The translations under genes were made by a program, and so were the position numbers. A stretch of 64,000 bases of DNA, taken from assembly GCA_000004985.1 (NCBI GenBank), contig GG738854.1; one strand, given 5' to 3'. Positions 1,601 to 58,515 of the stretch are shown in pieces (the first letter of the stretch is position 1; each line of letters opens with the position of its first letter). Under the pieces are notes generated by a model. The model saw nothing but the letters and a program-made list of their open reading frames with translations. It did no database searches and was not told the origin of the DNA. The DNA is from Naegleria gruberi. Lineage: Eukaryota.

Positions 1601-4600
1601 TCAATGTAACGTGCCAGTATCACTGTTGGAATTTTGGTAATTATTAAAATTATGTAATGATTGGAGAGGAATCAATCGGGGGAGATCATCGATTTTTTGA
1701 CATTGTGATTGTAATTCTTCCAATAAATCAATAATTTCAATAAATTCAGGTCTTTGTGAGGAATCCTGAGCCCAACATCTTTCCATGATTTGAACATATG
1801 ATTCTAAAAATCCAATAATTTCACTTTTTCCAAGATTTTCGATATGTTTCTTTGTAAAATTGTGTTCAATCCACTCATCAATTTGTTTTTCACTGAATGA
1901 TTTTGCATGCAACAGTTCTGGCCTGTGTCCTTTTGCAACTCTCATCAATATTTGGAAAACAGTTGTAGAGTTATCAATTTCATTTGAAAATGGTAATATT
2001 TCATATAATAGCTCCCACATTATTACTCCAAATGAATAAACATCCACTTTTGTGCTTTTACCTTTGTGATTATCTGAAAGTAATTCCTATAAAACAAAGT
2101 TCAACAAATCTATTTTCAATAGATACTTACAGGTGCCTATTGTATTTGTTAATGAATTCACAATAAAATACTTCCAAACTTACCATATAGAGTAAAGTTC
2201 CAACATTTGAGGTCATGGTTGCTGAATTGTTTGAAACAATTTTGCTCAATCCAAAATCTCCAACTTTTGCGTTCATAATCTTGTCCAATAAAATGTTCCC
2301 TGGTTTCAAATCTCTGTAATATTTTTGTTTAGGATAGAGTAAAACTCATAACATACCTGTGAATGATTTTGTGAGGTTTGATAGAATGTAAATATATCAA
2401 TCCTTTGGTGATATCAATCAAAATTTTAAGCTTGGTCTCAAATCTCATAATTTCTCTTCCTATTCTTGAGTTATAAATTGCCTTTTCTAGACTTCCATGT
2501 TCCATATATTCAACAACCATATATTTTCCATTGGTTGTGAGCGAAACTCCATAACAACTGACAATACAGGGATGTCTCAATGAGCTCATTAACATTGCTT
2601 CATTCTCAAACTCCTCATCATTTGAATCAGTTTTCAATTGTTTGATGGCAACATCAGTTCGATTCCACTTGGCATGGTAGATCATGCCCATTGCTCCTTC
2701 ACCAACTCTTTTTAGAATATTAATTTCTGATATTGGAATAATGTATTGTTGTCGTTTTTTTTGTGAATTAAGGATTTCCTTAGTATTAGAAGAATCTATT
2801 CCACTGTTAATACTATTTGAAGATATTAGTGGGGTGAATTCACTCTCAAATATAAATTCATTATCTGTAAACTTCCTTTCAATTTCCTTTTCAGCACGTT
2901 CTTGCTTCCTCAATTTCAACAATTTTCTTGTTATGAATATTCCTGCGTATAAAACTGCTCCAAATATAATTAAGAGTGAAATGAAACCTAATATTGCAGA
3001 GGTTAAAATAATTGCTATTGGAGAATATTCACAAATATAACCATTATCAAGCTTGTTTAAAATATAACTGTTTGGGCATGGAAGTATTTTCACTTTGACA
3101 ATTTTCTCAATGTCTGGAGTTACTATGATTGATAGAGAAAATTCTTTGGATATTTGACTTGGAAATATTTGCAAGCTCACTAATATTGTACGATTGTCAA
3201 ATAGATTATTTTGAGAAACAGTTCCATCTTCAATATTCGTTGGTCGAATAATCAACATATTCGGTTCCATCAATGATGAGGCAGTTTGATTGTAAAGATC
3301 TTTCACTAATACATTCATCTTGAATGATTCTCCAGGGTATATTTCAAGTTCATTGCCATTTTCTGTATTTCTTTCAAATTGAACTTCAACAGTTTGCAAA
3401 GGTGTCGCCACATTATTGCCATAGCATAGAGCATTATTTCCAACTATTATTTCGCCATTAACGGTCAACTGAGAGTAAATGCACCCTCCAGCATAAGCTG
3501 CAAGATTATTTTCACAAATTATATTCTTAATATAGGGAGTTACCGTGTTTATCCACATGGCCCCACCATTTTTTGCCGAGTTGTCATTAAAGGTAGAGTC
3601 AGTAAAACGAATTGAGCCAAATAATTTAGTTGTTTCAACATAAATTGCTCCACCTAAATCAGCAGTGTTTTTGGTAAATTGTGAATTTCCAATGTCTAAA
3701 TCTGTTCCATAAAGATAGAGTGTAGATCCTTTGCTTCCACCTGTATTTTCAATAAATTTACAATTTGTAATGGAAAGTGAATAGGACAACATTGTTTGAT
3801 CAAAAAATTCTAATAAAGCAGTGCCTGTTGTGAGTCTATTTTCAATAAACAAGCTATTGCGTATAAGTATTGCGATAATGCTAATAGAAGGATTATCTGT
3901 AAAGGATAAAAACCTTCCCCTATTATTTGAAACTAGACAGTTATTAATTGTTAAGGAGTCAACCATTTGTAATGAAAGCAACGCATTAGAGGCTGTATTA
4001 TTTTTAAAGGAACTGTTTGAAATTAGTATTCCAGAAATGCCAATCATTTGAAAGAGCATGTAATATTCAGTGTTTTCAATAGTTACTCCATTCAATTCAA
4101 TATTATCCAATGATATGAATAAAGCATTTGATAATACAGTAGAATTGATAATTGAAACTCTATTTCCAAGATTGAATTTCGAGATGGTCAGTAAGGAGCT
4201 TAATTTTGAGGTCCAAATAGAATTACCAATAGTAAATGTCTCAAAATTATCCATGTGAAAAACTCCATTAATTCTGCAATTATTAAATAGAACTGTTTTA
4301 GAATTTTTCAAATTAATAATTACTTCCATATTAGTGTTGAAAACGAATAGGTTTAATACTCCCACAATACTGAAATAATAATAAAAATTACAATCAATAA
4401 TCTCCAATTTTCGAATTTCCGAATGCATGACGACTGCATCTCTTGTTGTGCAATTTAACAATTTGAAATGTTCAATTCCATTATATAGTAAGAATTCCCC
4501 ACCAATGAATCCAAACTCTATTGTAAATGCATCAATAATTGCGTATGCCTGTAAATTGCCACGAGTAGTGAACAATTGCTTGTCCTTTCCTTTCCATATC

Positions 4601-5040
4601 ATTTCGAATCGATTTGCGTATTTGGAAAAATCGAAATTTGTTTCATAGCTTCGCATAAGTCCATTAATTACAATCACCATTGTGAAATTATCCAATTTTT
4701 TACCTTGATTAATTATTTCTGCCAATTCATTGTTTGCTGCTTTTACAATTTGACTCGGAGAGGAACATGGTTGATGCTCATCCCTACACGTTGCATTCAA
4801 ATCATCAACATTAGGAAATTCAGAATCTAAATAATAAATAGCTGAATATGATGATGAATTAATTGTATTGTTGGCCATTACATATTGATGATGCTCTTGT
4901 TCTTGTGGTTGGAGTACTACTACTAATTCATTATTAGCTAATATCGACTCGGACTTTGTTATTATCATCATTATCATCATCATAATAATTAAAAGCCTAA
5001 TAAATCTAAGAACCTCCGAAGAGGTGGTTATCTTGTGCAT
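1601..5040 (-). CDS. Receptor-type protein kinase with Pmp-like (GGA[ILV]/FxxN) beta-helix ectodomain, paralog 1
   Basis: Exons (minus strand) are 5040..2357, 2313..2184, 2136..2131 (microexon) and 2086..1601, with introns of 43, 47 and 44 nt (GTATGT..CAG, GTAAGT..TAG, GTAAGT..TAG). The N-terminus has a signal/anchor (LLIIMMMIMMII). The ectodomain carries repeated GGAIY, GGAMW and GGCIY plus FTKN and FNDN motifs. The transmembrane segment is IAIILTSAILGFISLLIIFGAVLYAGIF. Kinase motifs present are GEGAMGMIY, VAIK, HR|DLKPGN (split by intron 1), DFGLSK, LLYM-AP-ELL and DVYSFGVIMWELL. The first ATG is at 5040; the ORF-track 'M' at 5052 is a TTG. Confidence 0.7.
2131..2136 (-). other. Candidate 6-nt microexon (GCACCT, Ala-Pro of the kinase APE motif)
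   Basis: On the minus strand the sequence reads ...CTATATG|GTAAGT...ACAATAG|GCACCT|GTAAGT...TTTTATAG|GAATTA. The six nucleotides are flanked by a perfect acceptor and a perfect GTAAGT donor. Including them gives the canonical GTLLYM-AP-ELL motif. Skipping them is also in frame but leaves the kinase without the AP of APE. Confidence 0.45.
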
Positions 5041-5328
5041 TTTGTTTTTCAATTTTTGAATTTGATTATCCGTCGGAAGCCTTCATATTCTCTTTCTCTC
5101 TCTAGCTGTGTATTAAGATGGATTCAATAGATTGTCTGATAATTTCTTGAAGTTATCTTAAATTGTAATAGAATTTGTGCTTATTGAAATTTTTATTTTT
5201 TAATTTTATTTGATGATTCGGAAAGTTTTTTTAAAAAAAACTTGCTGCTTTAATTATTATTGAATCCTTAATTAGCCTTGAAAACTTTGAAAGTTCTCCT
5301 GTCAGAGCATGTCAACCCATCAAAAAAA

Positions 5329-5914: not shown

Positions 5915-7213
5915 ATGAATAATAATCAAAGATTTGATGTTTTGATTCTCTCCACCATTTTTTCATTTCTTCCCGCCAAAAATTATTTACTGAAAATTTG
6001 TCTTGTTTGTCGAGATTGGAATTTTTCAAATTCTTGTAAAATTAATAATCATGAGAATAATAACGATCAGAATTATCCTCTTCCGATGGTTGCACTTGAT
6101 TTATCCAACCGTAAGATTTTTGATGAAAAATTAGTAAAATTACTTGATGAGCAATTGGATCGGTATGATTGGAGAAATTTGAGAATATTAAATTTGGAGA
6201 AGAATCTTATTGAACGTATTGGTTGTTTGATGGAGACAGGGAGATCGTTGCAATTGAGTAATTTGAGAGTTTTAAATTTGAATGAAAATCAAATTGATGA
6301 GGAGTGTAGTTTGTTGTGTTGTGGTGTGGAAAATTTTATCAATTTGAAGGAATTATATTTGAGAACGAATTTTATTAGAAATATTGTTGTGAGAACGCAA
6401 TTTCCTGCTTTGGAAACGTTGGATTTGAGTGGTAATTGTATTGGAAATCAGGGAGTTGTTTCTTTATTGAAGGATGGTCTTGAAAATTTCCCAAACTTGC
6501 GAAAATTAGTGCTTTCTAATGTGGATATGAAGAGTTTGGATCCATTGCTCATGAATTGCCACAATTGCCCAAAATTGAAATGTTTAGATTTTAGTAATAA
6601 TTTTATTTATAACTCACAAACGATTCATTATAAGCATTTTAATTTTCCATTATTGGATGAGCTATATTGCTCAGCAGTTAATTCTACAGCTCGTTTACAA
6701 GAATTAATTGTGGAAAAATCACTTGATTCCTCCCTCACAACACTTGATTTATCACAATGTTATGTTGGAGAAGTTTTTTTGAAAGCTCTTTCTTTGGGAG
6801 AATTCAAGAAATTGACTAAACTCTTACTATCTAATAATGAAATTGGAAATGAGGAAGTTCTGCTATTGGGAAAACTTGACATGCCGAATCTAGTTCATCT
6901 CAATCTTGATGATAACCTAATTGGATTGGAAGGCGCTAACATCATTTCCAATTTTACTAATTTTCCTCAATTAGAATTTCTTTCCTGTAGAAAATATCCC
7001 GCAACAAAACACAAAACATTTGAAAGTTATTCATTGAATAATTTTCTTGAGGATTGCAGGGAGGAATTGGGAGAGGAATTAGAGGAGGAAGAAGAAGATT
7101 GTGAAGAGGATTATTATGGAGGTTTACGTAATTCGAAAGGAAAGGAAATTAGTTTTGTATCGTCGTTTGTTAGCTTTACTTGGACAAAAAGTGATTATGT
7201 CTATGTCTATTAA
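5915..7213 (+). CDS. F-box-like / leucine-rich-repeat (RNI-like) protein
   Basis: 432-aa ORF starting at ttaaaaaaaaATG. The N-terminus has an F-box-like segment (LILSTIFSFLPAKNYLLKICLVCRDW). It is followed by about ten LRRs of the LxxLxLxxNxI type (LRVLNLNENQI, LETLDLSGNCI, LTKLLLSNNEI, LVHLNLDDNLI). The C-terminal tail is acidic (EEEEEDCEED). Confidence 0.65.
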   Translation: MNNNQRFDVLILSTIFSFLPAKNYLLKICLVCRDWNFSNSCKINNHENNNDQNYPLPMVALDLSNRKIFDEKLVKLLDEQLDRYDWRNLRILNLEKNLIERIGCLMETGRSLQLSNLRVLNLNENQIDEECSLLCCGVENFINLKELYLRTNFIRNIVVRTQFPALETLDLSGNCIGNQGVVSLLKDGLENFPNLRKLVLSNVDMKSLDPLLMNCHNCPKLKCLDFSNNFIYNSQTIHYKHFNFPLLDELYCSAVNSTARLQELIVEKSLDSSLTTLDLSQCYVGEVFLKALSLGEFKKLTKLLLSNNEIGNEEVLLLGKLDMPNLVHLNLDDNLIGLEGANIISNFTNFPQLEFLSCRKYPATKHKTFESYSLNNFLEDCREELGEELEEEEEDCEEDYYGGLRNSKGKEISFVSSFVSFTWTKSDYVYVY

Positions 7214-7289
7214 TGGTTTAGAATAGCAACTGACTGCTATTTTGGTTTGTTTATTCCATCAAATAAACCGACATTTGACTTTAAAAAAA

Positions 7290-7895
7290 ATGAGACAAGA
7301 CAAGATAACATTCAACCCAGATAATTATTGTCTCATCTATGAAGAGGTAATGACATGCCAAGAAACAAGAAATATCTTTAAAGAATTCTTGAAGGAAAAC
7401 ATGGCGGAAGAACCACTTCTTTATTTGGACGAATGTGAAAAGTATAAAGTGGAATATGCCAAGTTGAAAGAGAAATTTAACGGTTTATCTTTGATGGTTA
7501 AAAGAAGTAGTAGTGTAGGAAATGTTTCTGATTTGGGAAACGAGACAAGTGGCAAGGAATGGGATAAAAATCAGTTGACTAAATTATTTGTGAATTTAAA
7601 AGGAATTATTGATGAGTTTATTGTGGAAGAGGCAACTAAGGAGTTGAATTTGTCGGTTAGGAAGTGGACGATAATGGAATGGCAGATAATAGAAGCAATG
7701 ATGAACGGATTCGAACAGGATTCGTCCAATTTTGAACTTTCGAATAATTTGTATAGGAAACTGGATATTAATGTGCTGTTTGAAAAGGTAGATTTAGTGG
7801 TTATGATAGATTTGAAAATGGATCAATTTCCTCGATTTATTCGTTCAAATTTAGCTCGAAAATTTCTATTAGAAAAGGGAGAACATTTCACATGA
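7290..7895 (+). CDS. RGS (regulator of G-protein signalling) domain protein, paralog A, terminating at an in-frame TGA
   Basis: ATG at 7290 (ttaaaaaaaATG). The RGS signature is present: NIFKEFLKENMAEEPLLYLDECEKYK ... KELNLSVRKW ... MIDLKMDQFPRFIRSNL. The reading frame stops at TGA 7893..7895. The aligned position in paralog B is AGA (Arg). Confidence 0.6.
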   Translation: MRQDKITFNPDNYCLIYEEVMTCQETRNIFKEFLKENMAEEPLLYLDECEKYKVEYAKLKEKFNGLSLMVKRSSSVGNVSDLGNETSGKEWDKNQLTKLFVNLKGIIDEFIVEEATKELNLSVRKWTIMEWQIIEAMMNGFEQDSSNFELSNNLYRKLDINVLFEKVDLVVMIDLKMDQFPRFIRSNLARKFLLEKGEHFT

Positions 7896-8296
7896 ACTGT
7901 GGCAATCGATATTTCGAAAGGTTTCAAAGTTGATTTGAGATTTAAACCAAAAGATTTGAAAGATAAGGAAATTAATGACAATCACATTTATTTTGGTATG
8001 TTAAATTGCAAAATTTTCATTGTTAACCATTTTTAGGATTAACCATCGTTAACATTCCAATATTTTCGTCATTCTTTTACAAACAAATGGCGATGAAAAG
8101 GACGAAAAGTATAAGGAAATCAATGATGAAAGAATTGGATCGATTAACAGATTATGGACGAAAGAAAATGGATACTAGTTCATTTGTGGATGAATTGAAT
8201 TTTAGAAAGTGTTTGGAAGAAAATTGTGTGAAATATCCGAATCGATCATGGTATAAGGAGTGGCTGGCTCTAAAACAAAATCCAACTCAATTTTAA
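7896..8296 (+). pseudogene. Post-stop continuation of RGS paralog A, still in frame and homologous to paralog B
   Basis: After the TGA the frame continues as TVAIDISKGFKVDLRFKPKDL. Paralog B has TRSIAIDVSRGFHVDIRFLPKDL at this point. A 41-nt GTATGT..TTTAG intron (7996..8036) joins this to exon 8037..8296. Its end, ...KYPNRSWYKEWLALKQNPTQF, resembles the paralog B C-terminus, KAHPQKSWYRDYLSLFHNKSL. Relative to paralog B there is an internal deletion of about 250 codons. Confidence 0.4.
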
Positions 8297-8339
8297 AGAA
8301 TTCCAATTTACAGAAAACTTAACATTTTGAAGTGTTATT

Positions 8340-11300
8340 TTAATTCATAAGAATGGAAGAACACTTATTGAGCTTGTCACAAATTTCTGCAAATGAAGGT
8401 CTTTCAACGTCCTTGTCCCAACATTTTGTCATTATTTCACACAACTCTTTCACAACAAGGGCAAGCTTCATCTCTGAATTACGAGAAGATCCAAAAATTC
8501 CTCCCTTCTCATTTTCCATCAAAAAGGAATTGACATATTCCTTCAATAAAGGATCCAATTGTTGATATCTTCTTGAAGATGAACTAATGTGATCACTGCC
8601 AGTACCTTGGAAGGAGAAATTCTTCTTGATTCTAAATGGAATTATTGGTCTCAATCCATTCACAATCTCTGTTGTAATTGAAATCATGTTAAAGTTAGGC
8701 AAGGTAATAGAATCAATTTGCTCAATATCAATGTTTGATTTCACGAGAGGAGAGTCATTTCTAAGTGGTTCCTTTTCCAATTCCACATCATCAATATTAC
8801 TATCTTCATCCAAATTAATTGGTTCGTAAGGTTTCACATTAATAAGATTCTTGTGCTTGACCATAAAATTCTTCATGGCTTCAAAACTTTCGGGACTGTA
8901 GGCACGTTCTTCAAAGAGCAATTCCCACATGATAATACCAAATGAGTAACTGTCACACTTTTCTGAATAGTCCTGACCTAAAATGAGCTCTGGAGGCATG
9001 TAAACTGGTGTGCCGATGGCTGATGTGAGTACACTTGCAGAGTCTTGAGTAAATTCTCTTCCTAATCCAAAATCACAAATCTTGGCAACATTATTTTCAG
9101 AGATGAGAATATTTTCAGGTTTGAGATCTCTGTGAATCAATGGTGGATCTAAACTATGCAAATATTTCATACCATACGCAACATCTAACAAGTAATTGAG
9201 CTTTGTTGCCAGGTTGAGTGGGGTCTTTTTCTTTTTCGAGTCGTGAATCTTCTTTCTCAATGTACCTCCACTCAAATATTCAATGACAATGAACCGATCA
9301 CTTGGTGTAATTGCAATTCCATAGAAAGTAACAATATTTGGGAATCTGAGAGTACTGAGAATATAAGCTTCCTTTTCAAAAGTAGAGTTGATTGTGTCTG
9401 TTTCTGCTTGATTGTCTTCATCATATTGAGTAATGTCAATATTAATTCTCTTGACAGCTACAGTGTTATTCATCCATTTAGCTAAAAATATTACTGATTC
9501 ACCACCTTGGCCAATTCTTTCAACAATTTGCAGGTCTTCAGGTTTGATAATCCAACTCTTATCTTGATTGAAGGAGCTATTTCCTGCTGTATCATCGTGC
9601 AAACTGTGTTTGGAAGAAATAAGTTGATATTGGAGTAATCTCTTGTGTAAATCTTCTTCTGCTTGTTCTCTCTTCTTTAATTCTTTGAGTTTCTTTTTGA
9701 AGAAGTACAAACATAATGTGGTTAATAAAATGATAAAGGTCAAACCAAGGGCAACAATAACACCGAGTGAAATGAGTAATGCATTTTGAACTGCTGAATT
9801 GAAAATACATGCCTGATCATCTACACTGTAATCAAAACTGAAAGGACAATTTGGTTCAAGGTTGACTGGGAAGTAAAATTGTTGAATAACATTCTTACAT
9901 TTAAAGTAAAGAATTAAGGTTTGATTGAGTTGTCCTTTCACTTGTACGTTACTGAAAATAGCTGTATCATTTGAGAAGGTTGTAGAAACGTGATTCTTGT
10001 AGTCTTCTGTGTTGTTAATATTAGTTGTGAAAACCAAATCAATATCTGCATTCTTGATGCTTTCCATTCTTTCATTGAACAAGTCAAACGAATCCAAGGT
10101 TATTTTCACAAATTGACCTGCATATAAATTAAAACCAGTGTACTTTTTCAAGAGAAGAGACTTGAATATACTAAGAGGAAAATCGTACGGAGTATCCTTT
10201 GGTTCCCATCCATTACTAGAAAGAGCAAAATACTTTGGATCAGAGGCATAATTGTCTCCATAAAGTTCAGCATAATTATCGTCAAAAAAAGCAGTCTTGA
10301 ATTGGCTGGCAATACGCATACTGGTTGTTCCTACGAGAAATACAGCACCTCCAGAGTTTTCTGCTCTATTGTGAAGGAAATTAATATTGCTAAATTGGAA
10401 TTTTGAATTTGGATAATCAATGTTATACAAGTACATTGCTCCACCATTGTCTGCCTTGTTATAGCTCAGAGTGATATTAGAAACTGTAGTAGAAACAGAT
10501 GAAGGAGTGAAGAGAATTGCACCTCCCATTCCTTCTTTCACTGGATTGTGGACAATTCTATTGTACTGAAATAAGGAATCTTGGATATTCAAATTAGTTA
10601 AACCATAGGCAAATACAGCACCTCCTCCTGGAGCTTGCTCAGAGTAGGCCTCTTCAGGTTTGTAAATAATTACATTTTGACTAAATTTAGAACTTCTCAC
10701 ATCCAATAAATCTCCTCTCGACACGTAAATTGCAGAACCACGAATACTGGCAACATTACCTTCAAAAGAGGAATCCTTCAAAATGAGCGAACTCCTTCTC
10801 TCTCCATAAATACCGCCAGCTCTTCCTTGTCGTGCTAGTCCATAGTTGAAGCTACTTCTCTCCACAAATGAGTATGTACTTGATTTGAGATAGAGAGCAC
10901 CTCCATATCCATCACAGGTACTGTTAAATAGAGTTGAATCGTTCAGGAAAAATTTTCCCTTCTCAATAAAAATAGCTCCTCCATCGTACTTGGAATAACA
11001 TTTAGAGAATGTGGAATAGGTAATACTTGAATAAGGAATATCCAAATACAAACATCCACCAGAATCTTGACTTGTTGCTGTTTCGAATTTTGAAGTTGTA
11101 ATTGATACAGATCCACTCTCAGAAGTGACATAGATAAAACCACCAAATGAAGAGAGGGCAGTATTGTAACCATCAGAAAATGTGGAGCGTACCAATGTGA
11201 AAACTCTATCAGTAACTCGTTCGCTTTGATCTGAAATGTAGATTGATCCTCCATGTCTCAAAGCAGTATTTCCCTTAAAATTACAACGTAAAACACTCAA

Positions 11301-12928
11301 CTTCAATGTGTTTGAATTAATGGCTGCTCCAAACTGGGCACTATTATTAATAAACTGTGAATCAATAACCTTCAAACTGTCTGATGCTATCTCTGAAAAT
11401 TGTTGCAAGTCCAAATAACGAACTGCAGATGCACTGCTCGTTCCCTCAAAAACACATCCAATAATGGATCCATTCCTCACATTTTGTAAGAAGAGAGCTC
11501 CACCATCATTGTCCAAAAATTTTGTACCAACCACAGATGTAGCTTGTGAATCAGCAATAGCAAGAACAGGTAACGTGCCCATATTACTATTTTCCATAAA
11601 GGCAGAGTTTGCAACCAACACAATGTAATAATTTTGAATGGAAACAAAGTGACAGGTTGTGTAACTGAATTGAACATTGGTAATAAAAGCACTAGTACCT
11701 GTCAATGACTCACTACTCTTAACTTGTAAACTTCCAGTAGCATTAAAGTTGGTATCAGAGATTTTAACTTTGGAACACGTTGCACAAGTCATGGCACCAA
11801 CACTGTAACACTGACTTCCAGTGCAATTTGTTGCAAAATTGCTCTTCTCAATTGTGAACTGTCTAGCTGTGTGTCCAAAGATGAAATAGTGTTTTGGTGA
11901 TGTGGATGTGCACTTTTGAGTTGAGGCACCAAGATCTTTACTTTCATCCAAACCAATTGTTACATAACTGGATGCAACATTGAGTGTAAAGGAAACATTT
12001 CTGAATAAAGCTTCACAATTATTATCCAATTCAAAATCAATATATGATTCAGATGGTCCTAAATTCCTCACCACTTGCAAATTTTCATAAAAACAAGTGC
12101 CACCTGAACATTCAACATAAGAATCGACCAGTTTAGAATTTCTAATGACAATATCTGGTTGCCAAGTTGCCGAAAACACATCAAACATTCGATTCAACTT
12201 GTTCATCTCCACCTCTTCAAATATAACTCTTGTTGTGTAAATACTCGAAACATAATCATTCTCTACTGCAATCACAGCATTAACATCCCAATTTACAAAG
12301 GCAATATTGGTGAATGATATTTCCATTTTGAAAGGATTGATTCGTATAAAGGGAGAATAATCAGCACATGAAATGAAAGTCTTTGACAATCCATAAAAGT
12401 TGGCAATAATCTTGCTTTGGATAGCCTCTGAATTGTTATAGTATGGCAAGTCAATTGCACAATTATTACTACCATCACTCACATCTATATTATTCAATAA
12501 ATAAATATTTAATTCTTGTTCTTCCGCTATTATTACATGATAATAATTATAATAGTATTATTAGTATTAATTTACATATGATGATGATTATTATTAATTT
12601 ACATGATGATCATTAATTTACATTGAAAATCAACAAAATTACTATTCGCATATATAAAAACAAACTACCTACCTGTACTAGTCGTATTGAACAGCACACT
12701 CCACCTCTCCAGTACATATTTTAGTGAGTTACATGGCTGAGAAGGGGTAGAACAGGGAAAGAAGTTATTGTTACTGCTGCTACTAGCCTTCGGATCAATG
12801 TAGACACTACTCATTATCTTGGCAATTGTGGTGTTGATGGTCAAAATGTTGAGAAACGATAGCACCACGAGGATAGAAATCAATCGCCACACCTCATGAT
12901 CCCTTCGGGTCATCATTGAATGTCTCAT
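8340..12928 (-). CDS. Receptor-type protein kinase with Pmp-like beta-helix ectodomain, paralog 2
   Basis: Exon 1 is 12928..12673 and begins MRHSMMTRRDHEVWRLISILVVLSFLNILTI (signal anchor). The intron 12485..12672 runs GTAGGT..ATAG; an alternative acceptor would place the exon 2 boundary at 12526. Exon 2 is 12484..8340. The ectodomain (roughly 750 aa) has many GGAVF, GGAIL, GGAMY, GGALY and GGAIF repeats plus FSQN, FQYN and FLHN motifs. The transmembrane segment is ALLISLGVIVALGLTFIILLTTLCLYFF. The kinase domain is in one exon: IGQGGESVIF, VAVK, HRDLKPENIL, DFGLGRE, YMPPE, DSYSFGIIMWELL. There is a long insert between subdomains IX and XI. Stop is TAA. Confidence 0.7.
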
Positions 12929-19071: not shown

Positions 19072-20537
19072 TCAATAATCTTGCTGGGCAAGGAGAATGA
19101 TAACTTGAGAGGCAAGGGACATGTCATGAAGTGAAACGAATTCGCTCTGTGAAAATGTAAACTTGAATGAAAAATTCAGTAAAAACTTACAGTTGAGTGG
19201 AAATTGTGGCCACCTGCGAAAATGTTAGCAGTTGGAAGACCCATCCAACTCAATTGAGAACCGTCAGTTCCTCCTCTAATAGAAACTTGCTTAACTTCCT
19301 CAATATTCAATTCCTTATAGGTTTCGATAATGCTCTTTTCCAAGTATGGATACTTGTCAATGATTTGTCTCATATTTCTGTATTGCTTGGTGAAAGTTGT
19401 TTCGATGGTTGCATTTTGATGTTCAGATTGAAGTTTGGCAACAATTTCCTTGATAATTTTTTGATAATTTTCCAAACCTTCATCATCAAAAGCTCTCAAT
19501 AAACATCTAATAGTTGACTTGTCAACATTTCCATTAAAATCCATACAGTGAATGAATCCTTGTCTGTCCTTGCTTACTTCTGGTGTTAAAACTTGATCAT
19601 TTGAAAATATCAAATCCAAAAATTTAGAAGCGACTTTGAGAGAGTTGACCATTCTACCATATGAATATCCTGGGTGAATGTTAAATCCTTTGAAAACCAA
19701 GGTAACAAGATCAGCACTGAAAGATTCAATATTATAGGTTCCAACTTCAGCTCCATCAGCAGTAAAAGCAACATCAGCACCAAACTTGGTTAAATTGAAA
19801 TAGTGTGGTCCTCTTCCAATTTCCTCATCAATAGTAAAAGCAATCTTAATATCACCATGTTTAATACTTGGATTATTCACTAAATATTCAACAGCAACCA
19901 TCATTTCAGCAACTCCTGATTTGTCATCCGATCCCAACAATGTTTCTCCACTGGCAGTCACAATATCATGTCCAATCATTTTAGCAAGCGATTTTCCATC
20001 AATTGCATACTCTACAATTGTTTTTCCATTCACAACCAAATCATTGCCGTCCTTATAATTTCTATGAACAATTGGCTTGACATTTGCTCCACTAAGCTCT
20101 GTAGCAGTGTCCATATGTGCCAAAAATCCAATATTTGTCTTTCTTTCGACATTTCCTGGCAAGACAGCATATACATTTCCATATTGATCCATTTCAGCTT
20201 GCAAATTCAAAGCTTTCAACTCATCAAGTAAAACCCGTGCAAAAATTAATTGTTTTTCAGTGCTCGGAACAGAAGCAGAAAGTGCATCACTCTGTGTATC
20301 AAATGTTACATAGTGCAGGAAACGTTCTTCCAATCGTTTTCTCATCCAATCTTGTTCCGTGATGGAAAATTTGGAATTTTCATAAATTAATTTTTTAATA
20401 TTTGATGGTGATGATTGTTCTCCGTTGAGTCCGATCTGGATGGATTCTTCCTGTGTTGCTGCGATGACGGAATAAGAAGCAAGCAACAAGAGGAGAAGCA
20501 AGGGAATAAATTGTTTCATTTTTTTTGTAATCAACAT
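19072..20537 (-). CDS. Peptidase M20B family tripeptidase (PepT-like) with N-terminal signal peptide
   Basis: Exon 1 is 20537..19191. A 44-nt GTAAGT..CACAG intron spans 19147..19190. Exon 2 is 19146..19072 and ends in TGA. The signal peptide is MKQFIPLLLLLLLASYSVIAA. M20 motifs are present: FLAHMDTA, GSDDKSG, FTIDEEIG and GGTDGSQLSW. The spliced C-terminus, GGHNFHSTSEFVSLHDMSLASQVIILLAQQDY, matches the conserved PepT C-terminal helix. Confidence 0.7.
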
Positions 20538-20712: not shown

Positions 20713-23700
20713 TTACATGAAAAGTGGGCTATCATCACATAATCTGGCAATTTCATACAAATGTTGGATAATTTCCTCAAAGCTTGGTCTTTCATTTGGG
20801 AGCTGATGCCAACACTGTTGCACTAGTTTGATATACTTGGAAACACCTTCAACAAATAGATTGCTGTTCTCATTATTGATTGGTTGAATAAATAATCTTG
20901 TCCATTCCTTCAATTGTTCATCATTTGAGAAGGGAATGTTTGGTCTTTTTCCTCTCACTATCTGGGTAATAACTGTTAGACTGTTACAATCTGACATCTC
21001 TGTAAAATAGTTCATCTTTTTGTGATTGTGAGTCGTATAAGGAACTTCTTCAAAAAAGAGTGACCACATAATAATTCCAAACGAATAGACATCAATCTTG
21101 GATGCATTCTTGATTCTTTCCTCTTTTGATAAGGAAGATCCTCCAAATGTACCTGATCCAATTGATGAATTACTATTCATATTTGAATTGGAATAATGGA
21201 TGGAGTCGGTAGCGTTTGAGAATCCAGAGAACTGTTCATTTTCAAAAAGCTCAGAATTATTAGAAACTCCAGAATCAAAATTCTCTGGAAATATTTGTTT
21301 AACACAGTGAAACTAGAATAAAACTTACCTGGAGGGCAATATAGAAGTGTACCAATGTTCAATGTCATACTAGTTTCAAACATGTTATTTCCAACAATTC
21401 TTGAAAGTCCAAAATCACAAATCTTTACACAATTTTTATCATCAAGAAGTACGTTTGCAATTTGAATGCCAGAATTCAATAAATTGTAATATAAATTACA
21501 TACCTGGTTTCAAATCACGATGACAAATCATATTTGGTTTAAGTGAATGCAAATAGGACATTCCTCTACTCACTCCCATCAAAATATCCAATTTCTGTTT
21601 CATAGTCAACTTTTGGCGACCAACTTTGCATTCACTGATTAGTTTTTCCAAACTACCTCCTTTCATGAATTCAATCACCATATATTTCTGGTTCTTGTTT
21701 GGAACACAAAAACCGTACATTGTAACTATTTCATCTTAAGTTATTTGAAACATAGGGGAATATTACATACCAATATTAGGATGTCTCAAACTAATTAAAA
21801 GTGCTCCTTCTCGTTCAAAAACATCTTCGTCATCTTGGTCCTTGATTGATTTAATTGCTACTTCAATTCCTTTCCATAATCCTTGATAAATCATTGATTG
21901 ACCTCCTTCTCCAATACGTTTCTGAATTGTAATATCCTCGGTTGGAATAATAAATGACGCCTTACTGTTAGGTCTATCCTCAGACTCTTCGAAAATAATC
22001 TTCTTATCAAGTAATACCCTTTCCATTTCAGATTCAGCTCTGGTTCGTTTTCTCAGTAGCTTTGATTTGTATCTAGCAACACAAAGTCCAATTAATCCAA
22101 TACAAGTGGTAATCAATGTCACTGCTGCTAAGCTTGTGACTAGAGGGAGAATGTAAAAAATGTTCACACAACCTGGTGCCTCATATCTATAGAAAGAAGG
22201 GCAAGAATCGAGAATAATATCCACCGTATAAGTTACTCTCTCATAGGTTACTGAAAGCTGCACACTTCTTGCTTCCTTGACTTCAGAATTTGAATACAAG
22301 CTAAAAGGCAGCCTGAAATCAGTATTGTTTGAGGAATCTGTCTTTAAAAACAGACTAGAATCACTAACTTGAAGAGTAATTGGAACCTTAGGTGTTTCAA
22401 TTAATCTTCCAAAAATGTTTCTTGCCTCAATCTCAATAATAAATTTTTGCCCCAAATAGGCTTTTTGAGTACCATTATAAACCGTGTGAGGATTGACATC
22501 AAGCTCAATAACTTTGTACTCAAATTCAAAACAAGGAGAGGAAATAGAGTCGTCATTGTCATAATAGTATTCTTCATTGATATAAATGGACCTATTACTG
22601 AGCACTTCTGAGTATCCAATTTTTCCATATTTTGCAGTGTTTGCATAAAAGACATTACTTGGAGTAATCGTGACCCGTATCTCTTTTGGTGCTTCCCCAA
22701 AGAAAATTACACCTCCCTTCTTTGCTATGTTTCGTTCAAAGTAACTTGTACTTATTTCAGAACTTCCTGTTACATAGAGTGCACCTCCTATGGTGTTTTC
22801 ATTTCCATTTCCAATAAATTTCGAGCCATCCACAGATAACACGTTTATATCGTATTTCGCACGAGACCTATATTCATAAAATATCGCTGAGCCCTTTGGA
22901 GCAACGTTATTGTAAAACTCACAATTCTTGACATGAAAAATAGCACTTGATTCAATATAAATTGATGATGTAGTGCAATTTAAAAATCTGGAATTTTGCA
23001 CAGTAGAAGATTTTTCGAAATAGTCATTGGATGGAATAATAGTATCATACGAAATTACATAATATATTGCTCCATTATAAGCATTTGGTTTCACATTAAT
23101 AAATTCTGAATGATCAACAAGGAAATAATGAATATCTTGCATGTGTAAACAAGTTGCAGAAATGTTGTTACATGACAGGTTTGTAATTTGTAACTCTTTG
23201 CATGTACTGATAAATATCATACTGCCTTGTGTGTTACTGTCATAGACTCTAACATTGTCAATCACTAGTTTGACGATAGAGGATACAAATAGCCAATTGG
23301 TTCCCATTGAAATGTTACTGTTAGTTATGTATGCGTCAATGGAATATCCAATATATAATACAGGATATCCTATTGCAAACGTTCCAATATAATCAATATT
23401 GTCAATAATTATTTCATTAGATTCAATGATTGAAAGTATAGAATCATCTCCAGTATCACACTCAAGTATTTTAACATCATCTACCCTTTCAATGAAGAGT
23501 TTGGCTTTCAGAGCAGAGTTTGTAATTTGCAAAATTCTTGAATTTCCTATAAAAGTATCCCCTCTGATTGTCACATGATCAAGCTCAATAATATCATAGT
23601 TAGCCATTCTCAAGTTTGTATCTGATATATCAACTTGTTGAAATATTGATACAGTTCCTTTTCTTGGTGAAAGAACCATTTGATTATTATATGTAAATTC

Positions 23701-24272
23701 ACCAAATTTCAAAAGTGATGCACTGAATTTACAATTTGTAAATGTTGCTTTGGGTGCACTCGTCAACGACATAGCAACATTGGTAAATCCAATATCTTGT
23801 GCCTCCACTGAAATGATGTTATTTTGATCAGTAAGAAGAGTTTGCCTTCCAACATGACAAACAATTGAGGCCATACCAGAATTCAATCCATTCTCAAATC
23901 TAACTCGATAACTAAAACCAGTTCTCTTATAAAAAGAAGGAACCTGACATTGATTCTCTGCTTGAATCCTAAAAACCACCGAGATAATAGTCTCTCCAAA
24001 CATCATTGTTTTTACCATATTATTCAAATGATTAACAGCACTACTCATATAATTACACAAATACTTTCCAGCACCTCCGGTACATGATGAACTAAATATC
24101 GAACTGATTGTATACTGATAACTCCTTTCCGAAACTCCAAGTACCAAATTATTATTTTCATTAATTATATTAGTACACAATAAAACAACAATGATCATCA
24201 AGTAATAAATTATTCTTGATGAACCCGAAGCGACTCTCCTTCTTGTATTCGTCATCACCATCATCGTGTGTC
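20713..24272 (-). CDS. Receptor-type protein kinase with Pmp-like beta-helix ectodomain, paralog 3
   Basis: Exon 1 is 24272..21771, from MMVMTNTRRR through signal anchor IIYYLMIIVVLLCTNII to ...LRHPNI. A 45-nt GTATGT..ATAG intron spans 21726..21770. Exon 2 is 21725..21504 (VTMYGFCV...HRDLKPG). The next intron starts with GTATGT at 21503 but has no AG acceptor before the IANVLLDDKNCVKICDFGLSR exon (to 21329). A 44-nt GTAAGT..CCAG intron spans 21285..21328. The last exon is 21284..20713. The kinase has LLYCPP|E, DVYSFGIIMWSLF and CWHQLPNERPSF. The ectodomain has GGALYVTG, GGVIFFG, NGAIYYV, FIGNGNEN and FERNIA. Confidence 0.65.
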
Positions 24273-24844
24273 TAGCTTCTTTAAATTTGATGACGGTTGT
24301 GTTGTGGTCAATGAATTGCCGGCATAAAATCTTTGTGAGATTCAAAGACCAAAATTATTTGTGAGATGCAAACACAATTTTTTTCTTCTTGAAAAGAGTG
24401 GAAAATGCGTTGTGAATCTTAATTACGGTTAGACTAATAAGGGGAAATTTTCCGTATTTGGTCCCTTAATAGAATTTATTTTTTGAAAAAGATGGAAGTT
24501 TATTTTAGAAAATGATAAGAAAGGGGTTTTGAAATGTCAATGAAGGGTCATGACAGTATTGAGATAACAGTGGACAGAATCTGTCATCGAATTGACACCT
24601 GGCAGTTTGTTTGAAATGAACAGAGATAAACAAACGGTAAAAAAATGCCTCTCCTTAACAGCTCAACTAAAGATAATGACCTGCAAGCTTCCAGAAATTC
24701 AAAAGCAGTTAAAAACGACGTACCGAAACATCACCAACTATCATTAATCAAGGAATCAATAACAGCAATGGGGAATTAGTTTTCAATAATGGACGAAACA
24801 GACACTTTACTGCCAATAATTACAAAGTTCTCTATGAAGAGTTG

Positions 24845-26302
24845 ATGAACAACCCAAAAGGAAGAGAAATCTTTCAGAAATATCTGAAAAATGAAGCATG
24901 TAGCGAAGAGCCAATTCTTTTCCTTAATGAAATGGATGAATTACGAGTCTAATATAACAAGATTAATAATTCGAATGAAATTTCATTGAAATTATGGAAG
25001 AAATATTTGGAGAAATTGTTTCGTATGGTTGAGAAATTCATCAGAGAGAAGAGTAATACTGAATTAAATCTTCAAGAAGCTCAACAGGAAAAATTATTGA
25101 GGAAAATTGATGAAGAAATTGCACCGCAATTTTCAAGAATATTTCTTTGTAATAATGGAGGAAAGAAAGTTTCGTCTCCTTCCTCGCCCTCTTCGCCAAC
25201 AAGTTCAAAAAGCTCCAAGTCAACCGAAAGCTATGAATCTTTCAGTAACCAATCTGTTGAATCAATAATAGAACAAGAATTGCAGAGCTATCTCAATATT
25301 GTCGATCCAGATGTATTATTTAATGAAATTGTCATATCAGTGAATGTTGATTTAAAGCTGGATCAATTTCCACGATTTTCCAGAAGTAAATTTCTCCTTG
25401 ATTTCCTTAACAAGCAAGGTGAAGCTTTCACCAGATCCATAGCCATCGATGTGTCCAGAGGATTTCACGTGGACATTCGATTTCTCCCAAAAGATTTATC
25501 CAAAAACTTTATCTACGACAAGGACATTTTCTTTGGATTTAGTTTAATTGAAGATTCACCAGATTGGCAAGTCATTCCTTGCTCTGCCATGTCAAACCAA
25601 GCTCAACTCTACCACTCCAACACATCCTACATATTTGGAAATAATGCAACTGGTATGAAACTCTACAAGATGGTCACAATTCTGCCCTACAAACTGGAAG
25701 ATGTCTTTTCAGCATTTTGTTTCATTCAAGGTGAAGACACTGGAGATCGATTGACTGAAAATCGAATCATTGGATCAAATGCTCCCAAACAGGCCATGTC
25801 CATGACTGGAGTGGATGAGAAGACTAATCCACTTGCCATTCGATATGTCACTTCATCATTGAAATTGTTACTTCCTGGACTAAAGGAAAGAGAATTTCCA
25901 AGAAGTTTAACTTGTGTCTATGATTGTGGATTGGATGCTTATATTAATGTTGGACACACGAGTCGTTATTCATTTCATGATGTGTCGAAAGAGAGAGTGG
26001 AGATGGATATGTTCTTTGTAAATATCATGTATCGAATAGGAGATTCGACAAGATTCGTATATGTTATTTACAGTGATGCACATACGCCCAAGGTATTGGA
26101 TTCGATGTTTGCAAAGGCTCATTGGAAACAACGTTGTGTGAGATTGGAACAAACATTCTTTCAATTATTACAAACTCACCAAACAAGTGAACTTTCAGAT
26201 AATTTTAAACTAAAAGAACTAGTTGAAGAAAACCTGAAAGCACATCCTCAAAAATCATGGTACAGAGATTATCTGAGTTTGTTTCATAATAAATCTCTCT
26301 AA
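24845..26302 (+). CDS. RGS domain protein, paralog B (5' structure unresolved)
   Basis: The RGS N-terminal box NNYKVLYEELMNNPKGREIFQKYLKNEACSEEPILFLNEMDELR is followed by an in-frame TAA at 24950..24952. Either a 54-nt in-frame intron (24947..25000, GTCTAA..GGAAG) removes it, or translation restarts inside the ORF-track ORF (24986..26302). The rest of the RGS domain (...KLFRMVEKFIREKSNTELNL...DLKLDQFPRFSRSKFLLDFL) and a roughly 300-aa C-terminal region are intact. Stop is TAA. The candidate upstream ATG at 24789 is in a different frame. Confidence 0.5.
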
Positions 26303-53288: not shown

Positions 53289-56200
53289 ATGTCTGTTGCA
53301 GAAGCTTCTAATAATGGTGCAGCTGCAACTACATTTATTGAAAGGAGTATTAATTTTAATGAATCATCAACCATACAACAATCATCATCACAACAACGAG
53401 AAAATCAACATGTGTCGGGAAGTTTTATAGGAAGCAATACGAGTAGTTCATCTAGCTCGACCAATTTTTCAGCAACAATGATGAAAAGTATTAAGGAAGC
53501 TATTGTGTCCTATATAATTTCAATGCAATACAAGCCACTGAGGCAGGGCAAAAAGTTTATGCTTCTCTCTGTTTTGTATCATTTGTATATAATGTGGATT
53601 TCCATCTTTTTACCAACACTAGGCGATTATAATTGGGGAGAATATGCAAATTGGATATTCAAGGCAGTAAATTATCCAGTAACCCTTTCACTAGATTTAA
53701 TTCCCTATGGTGGCATTGAGGCTTTGGGAGCAATTGTGTTTGCAATCAGTGCCCTATCTGTTCTTGTTGTTATAATGGCAGTTGCGAGTGTTCATAGGAC
53801 GAGTAAACACATTGAGAGGGTGAGATTAATAGTAATGGTGACTGGACTTGTTCTCTCTCTGTTGGGACCACTCTTTGCATTTATTCTGACGGGCTTTACA
53901 GATTGTGAATACAAGCAAAAGGTGTACTTTGAGAGTATAGATGATAAGGCATATGCTCTTTCTAGATATCCAGAAGCAGAGTGCTTTGGGGATAATATGT
54001 ACCTTTACATTATTTCAATTATTGCAGTATTCGGAATTTGTCTATCCATATTATGCACCTTAATTTCCTTCTCATCAAGTTGGAAGAGTGACATGGTATT
54101 CAAAACAGTTGTCCATTATCCATTATCATACTTGGTTATTAGTAATATTCTTCAAATGTTCATCATGTATTTTATTCATGATGAGTTCATGTATGGAAGA
54201 GCAATCCTTCACTTGATTATTTCAGCAAGTTGGATTCCTATACTATTCTATGAACTGCCCTTCCAATACAGATATGAAAATTCAATTTATTCTGGAGTGG
54301 GTTTTGCAAGAATAGGAGCATCAATTGGTTCTCTGATATCTTCCCTTGCCAACTCAGCTGACAATTCAGGTTTTGGTTTGGGAATGTTTGGCTTAACGTT
54401 CGCTCTTATTATCATTTCATTCATTGGTGGAGTAATAGGAATGGAATTATACATTAGATTATCTACTCACAAGATTAGAAGTTACATGTTGTCTATTGTT
54501 GAGAAAACTCTATCTGTTAGTGGATCATTGCCTTCGAAATTCAAAGAAAGAGCCAAATACATTCTGGAAAAAGAGGCCACTTCAATTTACTCCCATTTCA
54601 TTGAAACACAACAGGCAGGATATTTAAGAATATTTATTCGATTCAGCATTGATCAAAACTCTAAAAACAGCTCAGAAGCCATCCTCACAAACACTGATTT
54701 ATCTCTGTATTTCATTAAGGGTGCGTCAACTCAAAGATCATTCAACGATAGCAAAACTCTTCTCTATTCATCCATGTTAATTTATTTCAACTATGGAGAT
54801 GGTAATTTAGGATCAATGTATGCAAAAGGGTTGTTGAAAATCTTGGCAAAGCAAAAATTGAATATACCAGAAGTAATTATGTTAACAGAGTTTTCTAAGG
54901 AAATTAAGGATGAGAATAGTGTAAATTCATCTGATCTCGAACAATTATTGAATAAGGTAGAGAGTAATATAGCTGAATTGAAGTCCCTCCATAAGGCCTT
55001 CTGGAAAGAATATTTGCAAGATGTAATTGAAGTGGGAACTTTGGAATCGATTAATAACAAGTGTTCACAACTGATGAGCCAATGCGAAACTATTTTCAAT
55101 AATAGGCTTTCCAGATACAAACACAATAAGAATTTCCTCAGAGCGTATGCACAATTTTTAAACGAAATCAAATTTGACAAGGAAACTGCCTTTGAAATAT
55201 TCCAAGACGCAGCCATTGTTGACGAAGATGAGCCATCTAAAAAACGTGTTCTTGCTAAGAGTAATTTATTCACAGAATATGGTAAACAGCATTCTGAAAC
55301 CAATTTGGGGTTTTCTCTAGATGGCTTAAAGGCTAGCAACCAAAAGAGTATGGACATTGAAACAATTCATGAAGATCAAATGTTGGATGGAGTTGAGAAT
55401 GATCCACTTGCAAAACGGGAGTTCATTTTCAAAAGTGCTCTCTCCCAACCACAACAAGGAGGATATCATATGGGATCTGTTATCCTGTTCTGCTTTATAT
55501 CCTTCTCTTTTGTGCTCCTTGCCTTAGTTTTGAATGTTTATTATTCAGTGGAAGTTCTTTCAAATGTCAAGTTTGTTCAGCAAGTTTGTGAGCCAACTGT
55601 TTCTTCATATGCCATTTTGAAACAAATCAGAAATAATCAAATACTCCTTCAAGCTAAAAATCAGGGTCTAGATGTTGATGAAACAGATATTATGGGTATT
55701 CTTAAGGACGAGACAAACGAAAATATTACTTCCATACAATCTGTTTGGAAGGAGAGACTTAATTTCTATGTTGAACATATTGAACATGTTAAAAAGATGT
55801 CACAAGGTAAAATTGTTGGAAAATTCACACCTGAAATGTATGAAGATTACAATAGTGAAACAAATGAAATATTTGTTCCTGTGATTCAAACAAAGAATCA
55901 AAATTCATTCATTGAGGTCATTAAGAAGAATGTTTCACTCTCTGAAATATCATCACTCTTGATTGATATTGTTGAAAATTATCCATCAGGAGGATACAAT
56001 GAAACATTGAAAGAATATGATTTCATGTTGGTATTCTTGAATAGGGAAACTTTCACAAATGCCTTTGTGAAAACATGTTTCAGTTTCTTGGAAAGATGTG
56101 AACTTGACTCCAAAAATTTCAACAATTACTACCTATACTTTTATGTTTCTGTATTGTCATTTTACATTCTTTACACAGCCATCTATATTCTCTATGTAAG

Positions 56201-58316: not shown

Positions 58317-58515
58317 TGAATCCATTTTGGTAATATAGAATCATTTTATTTGCCAATATATTTTCCTTTTTTGTCACTTAACGATTCTGACAACCAATGA
58401 TGGCGATGTTAGTGAGTTACAGAAATGGCGGGTAAAACATGAAATCTCAATTCTTATTAAAAAAAACATCATTAACCCTTCTTGAATACAAAAAGATATT
58501 GGTTTGCTTTTTAAA

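Follow-up and report, generated by a model that had tools for sequence, protein, structure and literature searches.

The window (the whole stretch of Naegleria gruberi NEG-M DNA that was analyzed, 64,000 nt) harbored an RGS gene on its plus strand, facing a convergent kinase ORF (8343-12326, minus strand) that corresponded exactly to EFC47642 (P0158). The RGS gene began with ATG 7290-7292, which opened a 201-codon ORF closed by an in-frame TGA at 7893-7895 (context ACA TGA ACT). Pfam placed the RGS domain PF00615 ahead of this stop (residues 17-188, HMM positions 2-113 of 117, 33.9 bits against a cut-off of 23.9), in agreement with an earlier sequence-only reading in which the domain was complete and was ended by the TGA. 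The in-frame continuation past the stop, proposed in the same reading, was also recovered: the frame stayed open for 34 codons to 7995. Splicing out 7996-8036 gave a 966-nt reading frame, a multiple of three, with TAA 8294-8296 at its end, and the approximately 120 stop-free codons after the TGA had a chance probability of about 1e-4 (arithmetic at 33% GC and a stop frequency of ~0.075 per codon). The features of the gene, and of a paralog located on the same strand, were as follows (L001 is the intact allele introduced below):

7290..7892, plus strand: surviving ORF of 201 codons with a complete RGS domain (translation, Pfam)
7652..7733, plus strand: three changes at the amino-acid level found in the window allele only (L001 DNA alignment, allele table)
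7893..7895, plus strand: premature TGA in place of AGA (Arg), A>T at 7893 (AGA at L001 1353-1355; AGA in paralog B)
7896..7995, plus strand: rest of exon 1, in frame, with the family's most conserved linker motif TVAIDISKGFKVDLRFKPKDL...IYFG
7996..8036, plus strand: GT-AG intron of 41 nt, GTATGT...TTTAG (identical to L001 1456-1496)
8037..8296, plus strand: exon 2 remnant, composed of 4 codons, the deletion junction, the C-terminal START-fold helices, and the original TAA 8294-8296
8048..8049, plus strand: point at which 555 bp (185 codons) are missing in frame relative to L001 (blastn, MAFFT)
24728..26302, plus strand: paralog B (RGS-START), interrupted by TAA 24950-24952 (the GenBank model P0010 begins after this TAA)

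Elsewhere in the window, two tandem paralogous ORFs of ~1,680 aa (53289-58316 and 58504-63558, plus strand) carried TPR_TmcB, PAS, and adenylate/guanylate cyclase domains, which is typical of the Naegleria cyclase expansion. Three large kinases (8340-12497, 21763-24345, and 2329-5052, all on the minus strand) displayed N-terminal beta-helix or Chlamydia-PMP-like repeats and were apparently receptor-like; kinase ORFs 2329-5052 and 21763-24345 finished within the kinase domain, suggesting that they contain introns or are truncated.

The annotated protein EFC47518 (P0007, NAEGRDRAFT_47142, 164 aa, 'predicted protein'), encoded on the same 665,159-bp contig as EFC47642, matched residues 38-201 of the window ORF exactly and terminated at the TGA; TGA 7893-7895 had already been taken as a stop in GenBank annotation. 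An exact-protein look-up of the window's own 201-aa product gave no record. The annotated start of NAEGRDRAFT_47142 was Met38 (7401), while the ORF from ATG 7290 encoded FNPDNYxxxYEEV. Because this motif was conserved across the family, and because P0001 (a second NEG-M protein model, see below) began at the equivalent of 7290, the start of NAEGRDRAFT_47142 was probably called too far downstream, at Met38 instead of ATG 7290.

Relatives of the RGS gene were found in N. gruberi, N. fowleri, N. lovaniensis, Willaertia magna, and metagenomes. The profile search returned 456 representatives at E<=1e-3, 68 of them reaching E<=1e-30, the 456 being 50%-identity cluster representatives with named members from Naegleria and Willaertia. 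The TGA position corresponded to R195 of P0002, a relative 40% identical to the window RGS gene, and lay within the block FTRxIAxDISKGFxVDxRFKPxDL. This Arg was invariant: all 25 of the 25 family members matching the linker motif had it, and every one of them continued past it. The block (P0002 193-215, equivalent to window 7887-7960) was the best conserved stretch of the family and was located between both domains, while the linker residues 203-214 of P0002 had the lowest confidence in its structural model (pLDDT <50); the block may be an interaction or regulatory motif instead of a passive linker.

The AlphaFold2 model of P0002 (pLDDT 79.9) was composed of a helical RGS domain (~18-197), a short low-confidence linker, and a helix-grip domain (helix 223-233, strands 239-399, and helix 407-434). 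The best Foldseek matches of P0002 in PDB were START domains, namely those of STARD5, STARD10, StAR, CERT, and STARD4 (E ~1e-8, target-normalised TM-score 0.65-0.75), and the model thus displayed the START / Bet v 1-like helix-grip fold. By sequence, the Pfam START profile (PF01852) had no match at E<=1 in full-length L001, P0002, P0004, or P0011, in which RGS alone was detected, and the family profile searched against PDB sequences gave no START match, hitting RGS chains only (RGS17, RGS16, RGS2, and RGS4). The intact family is predicted, on the strength of the model, to join an RGS domain to a START lipid-binding fold through a conserved linker. The C-terminal 250 residues of the family resembled STARD4/5, StAR, CERT, and STARD10 in this predicted fold but shared a sequence identity of only ~10% with them and escaped the Pfam START profile. 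Literature searches found nothing on project PRJEB11402 or on Naegleria proteins that combine RGS and START.

An intact allele of the window gene, L001, was reached via P0003, which was 99% identical to the tail. L001 was a 4,186-bp ENA metagenome contig from run ERR1078381, and it was syntenic with the window (LRR gene tail, RGS gene, and kinase on the minus strand). It aligned to window 6616-8048 and 8049-10171 with an overall identity of ~99%: 99.5% identity to the right of the deletion and 23 mismatches over ~1,430 bases to the left. At the site of the stop, L001 read TTC ACA AGA ACT, with A at base 7893 where the window has T. It further contained 555 extra in-frame bases, and its spliced ORF encoded 507 aa. 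The 41-nt intron described in the sequence-only reading was identical in L001, and the exon junction of L001 after intron removal, IYFG|LTIAEDTPDW, fitted the family consensus IYFGxxLxEDTPDW gaplessly, so that the intron was validated; ORFs P0005 and P0006 both went out of frame directly after IYFG. Scans of JGI metagenome contigs found no further natural alleles or relatives.

The window allele and L001 differed at nine places within the gene (TGA included): (i) three non-synonymous differences, one codon indel, and two synonymous differences upstream of the TGA and (ii) no non-synonymous and two synonymous differences downstream of it. The first of these two, at 7907, was the single difference in 7896..7995, and the second, at 8146, was located in the exon 2 remnant, the tail of which had 100% amino-acid identity to the L001 tail. 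With just nine differences between the alleles, a dN/dS comparison upstream against downstream of the TGA was powerless. At the window-L001 divergence, a neutral remnant of 360 nt would be expected to have gathered ~2-6 substitutions and ~0.1-0.3 new stops; both numbers are so low that the intact look of the remnant says nothing about selection.

Three of the upstream changes were private to the window allele: one Ser codon lost after 7652, Q>K at 7662, and L>F at 7733. L001 and P0001 had a common alternative state at all three sites. All three fell within 80 nt directly after ELNL, a conserved motif in the RGS domain; the motif itself was kept, and the codon loss and Q>K fell 1-5 residues beyond it. 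The (E/Q)xN(L/I) loop with its conserved Asn goes with GAP activity towards G-alpha, and the loop after ELNL contacts G-alpha in RGS4. The clustering of private changes at this place is a weak hint that constraint has been relaxed on the RGS domain too.

Two further observations were made on L001. In the upstream intergenic region (window 7213-7282 versus L001 599-739), the window was without 21+16+34+1 nt and displayed a substitution cluster; these gaps may reflect either insertions in L001 or additional deletions that are private to the damaged allele and affect its promoter. Two assemblies of ERR1078381 differed by one base (L001 2169 / L002 709), giving Tyr or Cys in the tail, and the Cys state was common to a copy on a 43.7-kb NEG-M scaffold; two haplotypes are probably present in the sample, and L001 could have been assembled from both.

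The large internal deletion noticed in the sequence-only reading was found to be exactly 555 bp long: L001 1509-2063 was absent at window 8048|8049. It ran from the second base of an Ala codon through the first base of an Ile codon and preserved the frame, taking out 186 residues (AEDTPDW...TYSEI) and making one new Val codon, with the peptide predicted across the junction reading ...IYFGLTIVNIPIF... No microhomology was present at the junction, only a 6-nt ATTAAC close by, and the deleted segment was not found elsewhere in the window. The deletion corresponded to P0002 residues 233-401, i.e., all beta strands of the START fold in the AlphaFold2 model, while the model's helices 407-477 fell in the exon 2 remnant region. 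Because the whole beta sheet was taken by the deletion, the window allele, unlike P0002 and the START lipid-transfer proteins, would be unable to build the fold even if the stop were ignored.

A second NEG-M copy of the gene was located on a 43,759-bp scaffold. P0001 (EFC36068, 202 aa) stopped at the same ...EKGEHFT, and the adjoining P0008 (EFC36067, 230 aa) covered the START region, intact save for an in-frame loss of five residues (15 bp); NAEGRDRAFT_76266 and NAEGRDRAFT_54590 on this scaffold each represent half of a single gene. Exact-protein look-ups of P0001 and P0008 gave no record. The two NEG-M copies differed at six other amino-acid positions. Because the P0001 model ends there and TGA is the sole stop one step away from AGA, the second copy would appear to carry TGA at the same codon. 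If so, a sequencing error is excluded as the source of the stop, the stop is probably older than the 555-bp deletion, and NEG-M is without any uninterrupted copy. As for synteny of this scaffold, the cluster of the kinase neighbor was single-member, and the homologue search gave no second NEG-M kinase copy.

Paralog B had been used in the sequence-only reading as a comparator, with AGA aligned opposite the TGA. That AGA was indeed found, at 25433-25435, and paralog B and the window gene shared 32% identity (tblastn E=6e-30); however, paralog B could not serve as an intact reference, since its frame was broken by a TAA at 24950-24952 and lacked an ATG ahead of it. At the position of this TAA, the window gene had GAA and the closest paralog P0011 had Glu (KEYAKY). 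The interval between the preceding stop and the TAA contained no in-frame ATG, and P0010 (425 aa), the GenBank model of paralog B, started at a Met inside the RGS domain. Two ways of bypassing the TAA were considered and rejected: (i) a GT-AG intron linking ATG 24645, the sole ATG ahead of the TAA and in another frame, to the frame of paralog B, for which there was no candidate, and (ii) a 15-nt mini-intron (GTCTAATATAACAAG) over the TAA, which would delete residues aligned with the conserved KEYAK of the paralogs. Both RGS-START paralogs in the window therefore carry nonsense lesions. A scan for single-stop interruptions with long open flanks, run at a threshold of 70 codons (below which the TGA of the window RGS gene falls), returned paralog B and four others, the latter being read as antisense frames of real genes. 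A dN/dS comparison against paralog B, suggested in the sequence-only reading, was dismissed as uninformative, given the 32% identity, the disruption of paralog B, and its divergence long before the lesion.

Taken on their sequences, the family, paralog B, and L001 agreed, and AGA together with the full domain is thereby shown to be the ancestral state; relative to L001, the window allele displayed disabling lesions against an intact ancestral form. The locus is probably a young allele-specific truncation, caused by AGA>TGA and the 555-bp deletion, that has left either a nascent pseudogene or a remnant with RGS alone. At 7893, an A>T transversion turned the codon of the invariant linker Arg from AGA into TGA, and the 555-bp in-frame deletion at 8048|8049 stripped every START beta strand. 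The TGA probably preceded the deletion, because the second NEG-M copy appears to have the stop yet retains the START region. Translation would end at the TGA and yield at most a 201-residue RGS-only protein, while 7896-8296 would be an untranslated remnant, coding-like only because there has been too little time for decay. Nonsense-mediated decay may act on the mRNA, as the exon junction follows the stop at a distance of 100 nt. The sequence-only reading had offered a recent nonsense mutation with a decaying 3' remnant as one of its accounts: its nonsense part was borne out by AGA in L001 and by the invariant Arg, while its decay part held for the 555-bp deletion only. The other downstream codons had two synonymous and no amino-acid changes against L001, and they would be undecayed because the lesions are very young.

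Shedding of the START domain under selection, in which the TGA allele is retained for the benefit of a free-standing 201-residue RGS protein, would accord with the complete RGS domain before the stop, with the appearance of a same-residue stop in both NEG-M copies despite their six other amino-acid differences, and with the location of both later lesions (555 bp and 15 bp) downstream of the stop. Many animal RGS proteins are likewise little more than an RGS domain. We nevertheless regard this as an unlikely account of the locus: the private codon loss and two substitutions after ELNL hint at relaxed constraint on the very domain that would be kept, none of the 25 linker-motif family members ends at the Arg, and the stop 100 nt upstream of the intron makes a classical configuration for nonsense-mediated decay. 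Loss-of-function alleles can also drift in NEG-M, a long-cultured axenic laboratory strain. We infer that the copy is a nascent pseudogene and not a selected RGS-only gene.

The readings that leave the downstream frame translated, or that dispute the DNA itself, were weighed against the same evidence. Programmed or tolerated readthrough, with UGA decoded, e.g., by a near-cognate Arg, Trp, or Cys tRNA, would explain a frame open for ~120 codons across a spliced intron, two deletions that are both in frame, and the lack of any downstream stop or frameshift in either NEG-M copy. Near-cognate decoding of UGA can even restore Arg. Continued translation likewise predicts zero amino-acid changes downstream of the TGA and in-frame deletions (555 bp, and 15 bp in P0008), but the neutral expectation is nearly the same at ~0.5% divergence, and two in-frame deletions would arise by chance with p ~0.11. 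Against readthrough, the intact AGA allele makes the TGA a new mutation rather than an ancient one, and all 25 of 25 relatives have Arg, none a stop, at this site. The stop was in the TGA-A context, as were two ORF-ending TGAs in the window, and was not of the leaky UGA-C / TGA-CUAG type; the 103 nt from the stop folded no better than shuffled sequences (z=+0.76); and the product of the window allele would be without the entire START beta sheet. Neither conservation of the stop in orthologues nor a stimulatory context or RNA element, by which a recoding site would be recognized, was found, and readthrough is thus highly improbable. The TGA looks like an ordinary minor terminator in the window, judged from the ORF ends: long stop-free stretches were ended by 27 TAA, 7 TAG, and 3 TGA, close to the earlier count of 27 TAA or TAG among 29 stops, and TGA-A also terminated long ORFs at 19176-19178 (453 codons) and 1601-1603. 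A non-standard code (ciliate- or Blastocrithidia-like), raised by the TAA of paralog B opposite Glu together with the in-frame TGA of the window RGS gene, was rejected, as the DNA is from N. gruberi, TGA, TAA, and TAG ended other long ORFs, and just two genes were interrupted.

Selenocysteine insertion at the TGA has some footing in that N. gruberi possesses Sec machinery, reported as SPS2 fusions (PMC4561486). It is nevertheless scarcely credible here: the Rfam SECIS models had no match in 7000-9500 even at E<=10, the 3' UTR would be at most ~44 nt long before the end of the convergent kinase gene at 8340, and the ancestral and family-wide residue was Arg, not Cys or Sec. The recoding option of the sequence-only reading accordingly found no support, with no SECIS, no downstream structure, a TGA-A context, and a destroyed START fold against it. 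Its sequencing-error option fared little better. A wrong base at 7893 and/or a collapse of 555 bp during assembly would be compatible with the existence of the intact sequence elsewhere at ~99% identity and with the single assembly in which the window haplotype was seen, but an independent NEG-M scaffold model halted at the same residue, the deletion junction had no repeat that would mislead an assembler (just the 6-nt ATTAAC nearby), and the other private differences mark a distinct haplotype, not a misread L001 copy; an artifact is therefore very doubtful. Only slightly less doubtful is that NEG-M uses low-level UGA readthrough to make a full-length RGS-START protein from the 43.7-kb copy, or that an RGS/START gene fission is under way. 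If true, either would represent a newly arisen stop tolerated via basal readthrough in a heterolobosean.

The truncation was also compared with known systems. With programmed UGA readthrough genes, e.g., Drosophila kelch and hdc and mammalian AQP4 and MDH1 (UGA-CUAG), the window gene shares an in-frame UGA beyond which a homologous frame stays open, but its UGA is a derived polymorphism, neither conserved nor placed in a leaky context, and is followed by no downstream structure. The window gene is also like a young polymorphic pseudogene of a heterozygous diploid protist, in which a nonsense mutation at a conserved codon and an internal deletion coexist with an intact allele persisting in the species and with undecayed downstream sequence. 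It departs from this model in two respects: (i) the window ORF still encodes one complete domain and could persist as a shorter gene and (ii) the stop is seemingly on both NEG-M copies, the deletion on one. The truncated product, at ~200 residues with a single RGS domain, further resembles the R4-type small RGS proteins (RGS1, 2, 4, and 16, among others), which are essentially RGS-only G-alpha GAPs; it is not an orthologue of these, carries a long insert in the RGS domain (residues 60-100), has only putative GAP activity, and acquired its RGS-only form by truncation of an RGS-START protein.

A young truncation of this kind is an ordinary event, and its significance lies mainly in annotation: NAEGRDRAFT_47142 represents the truncated allele of an RGS-START gene whose full-length product has 507 residues. 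The damage found in these copies points to several young loss-of-function lesions in the expanded RGS-START family of NEG-M, which calls for caution with signaling-gene counts drawn from the N. gruberi reference proteome. The recognition of a large heterolobosean RGS family with a predicted START fold that sequence profiles miss may outweigh the stop codon in usefulness.
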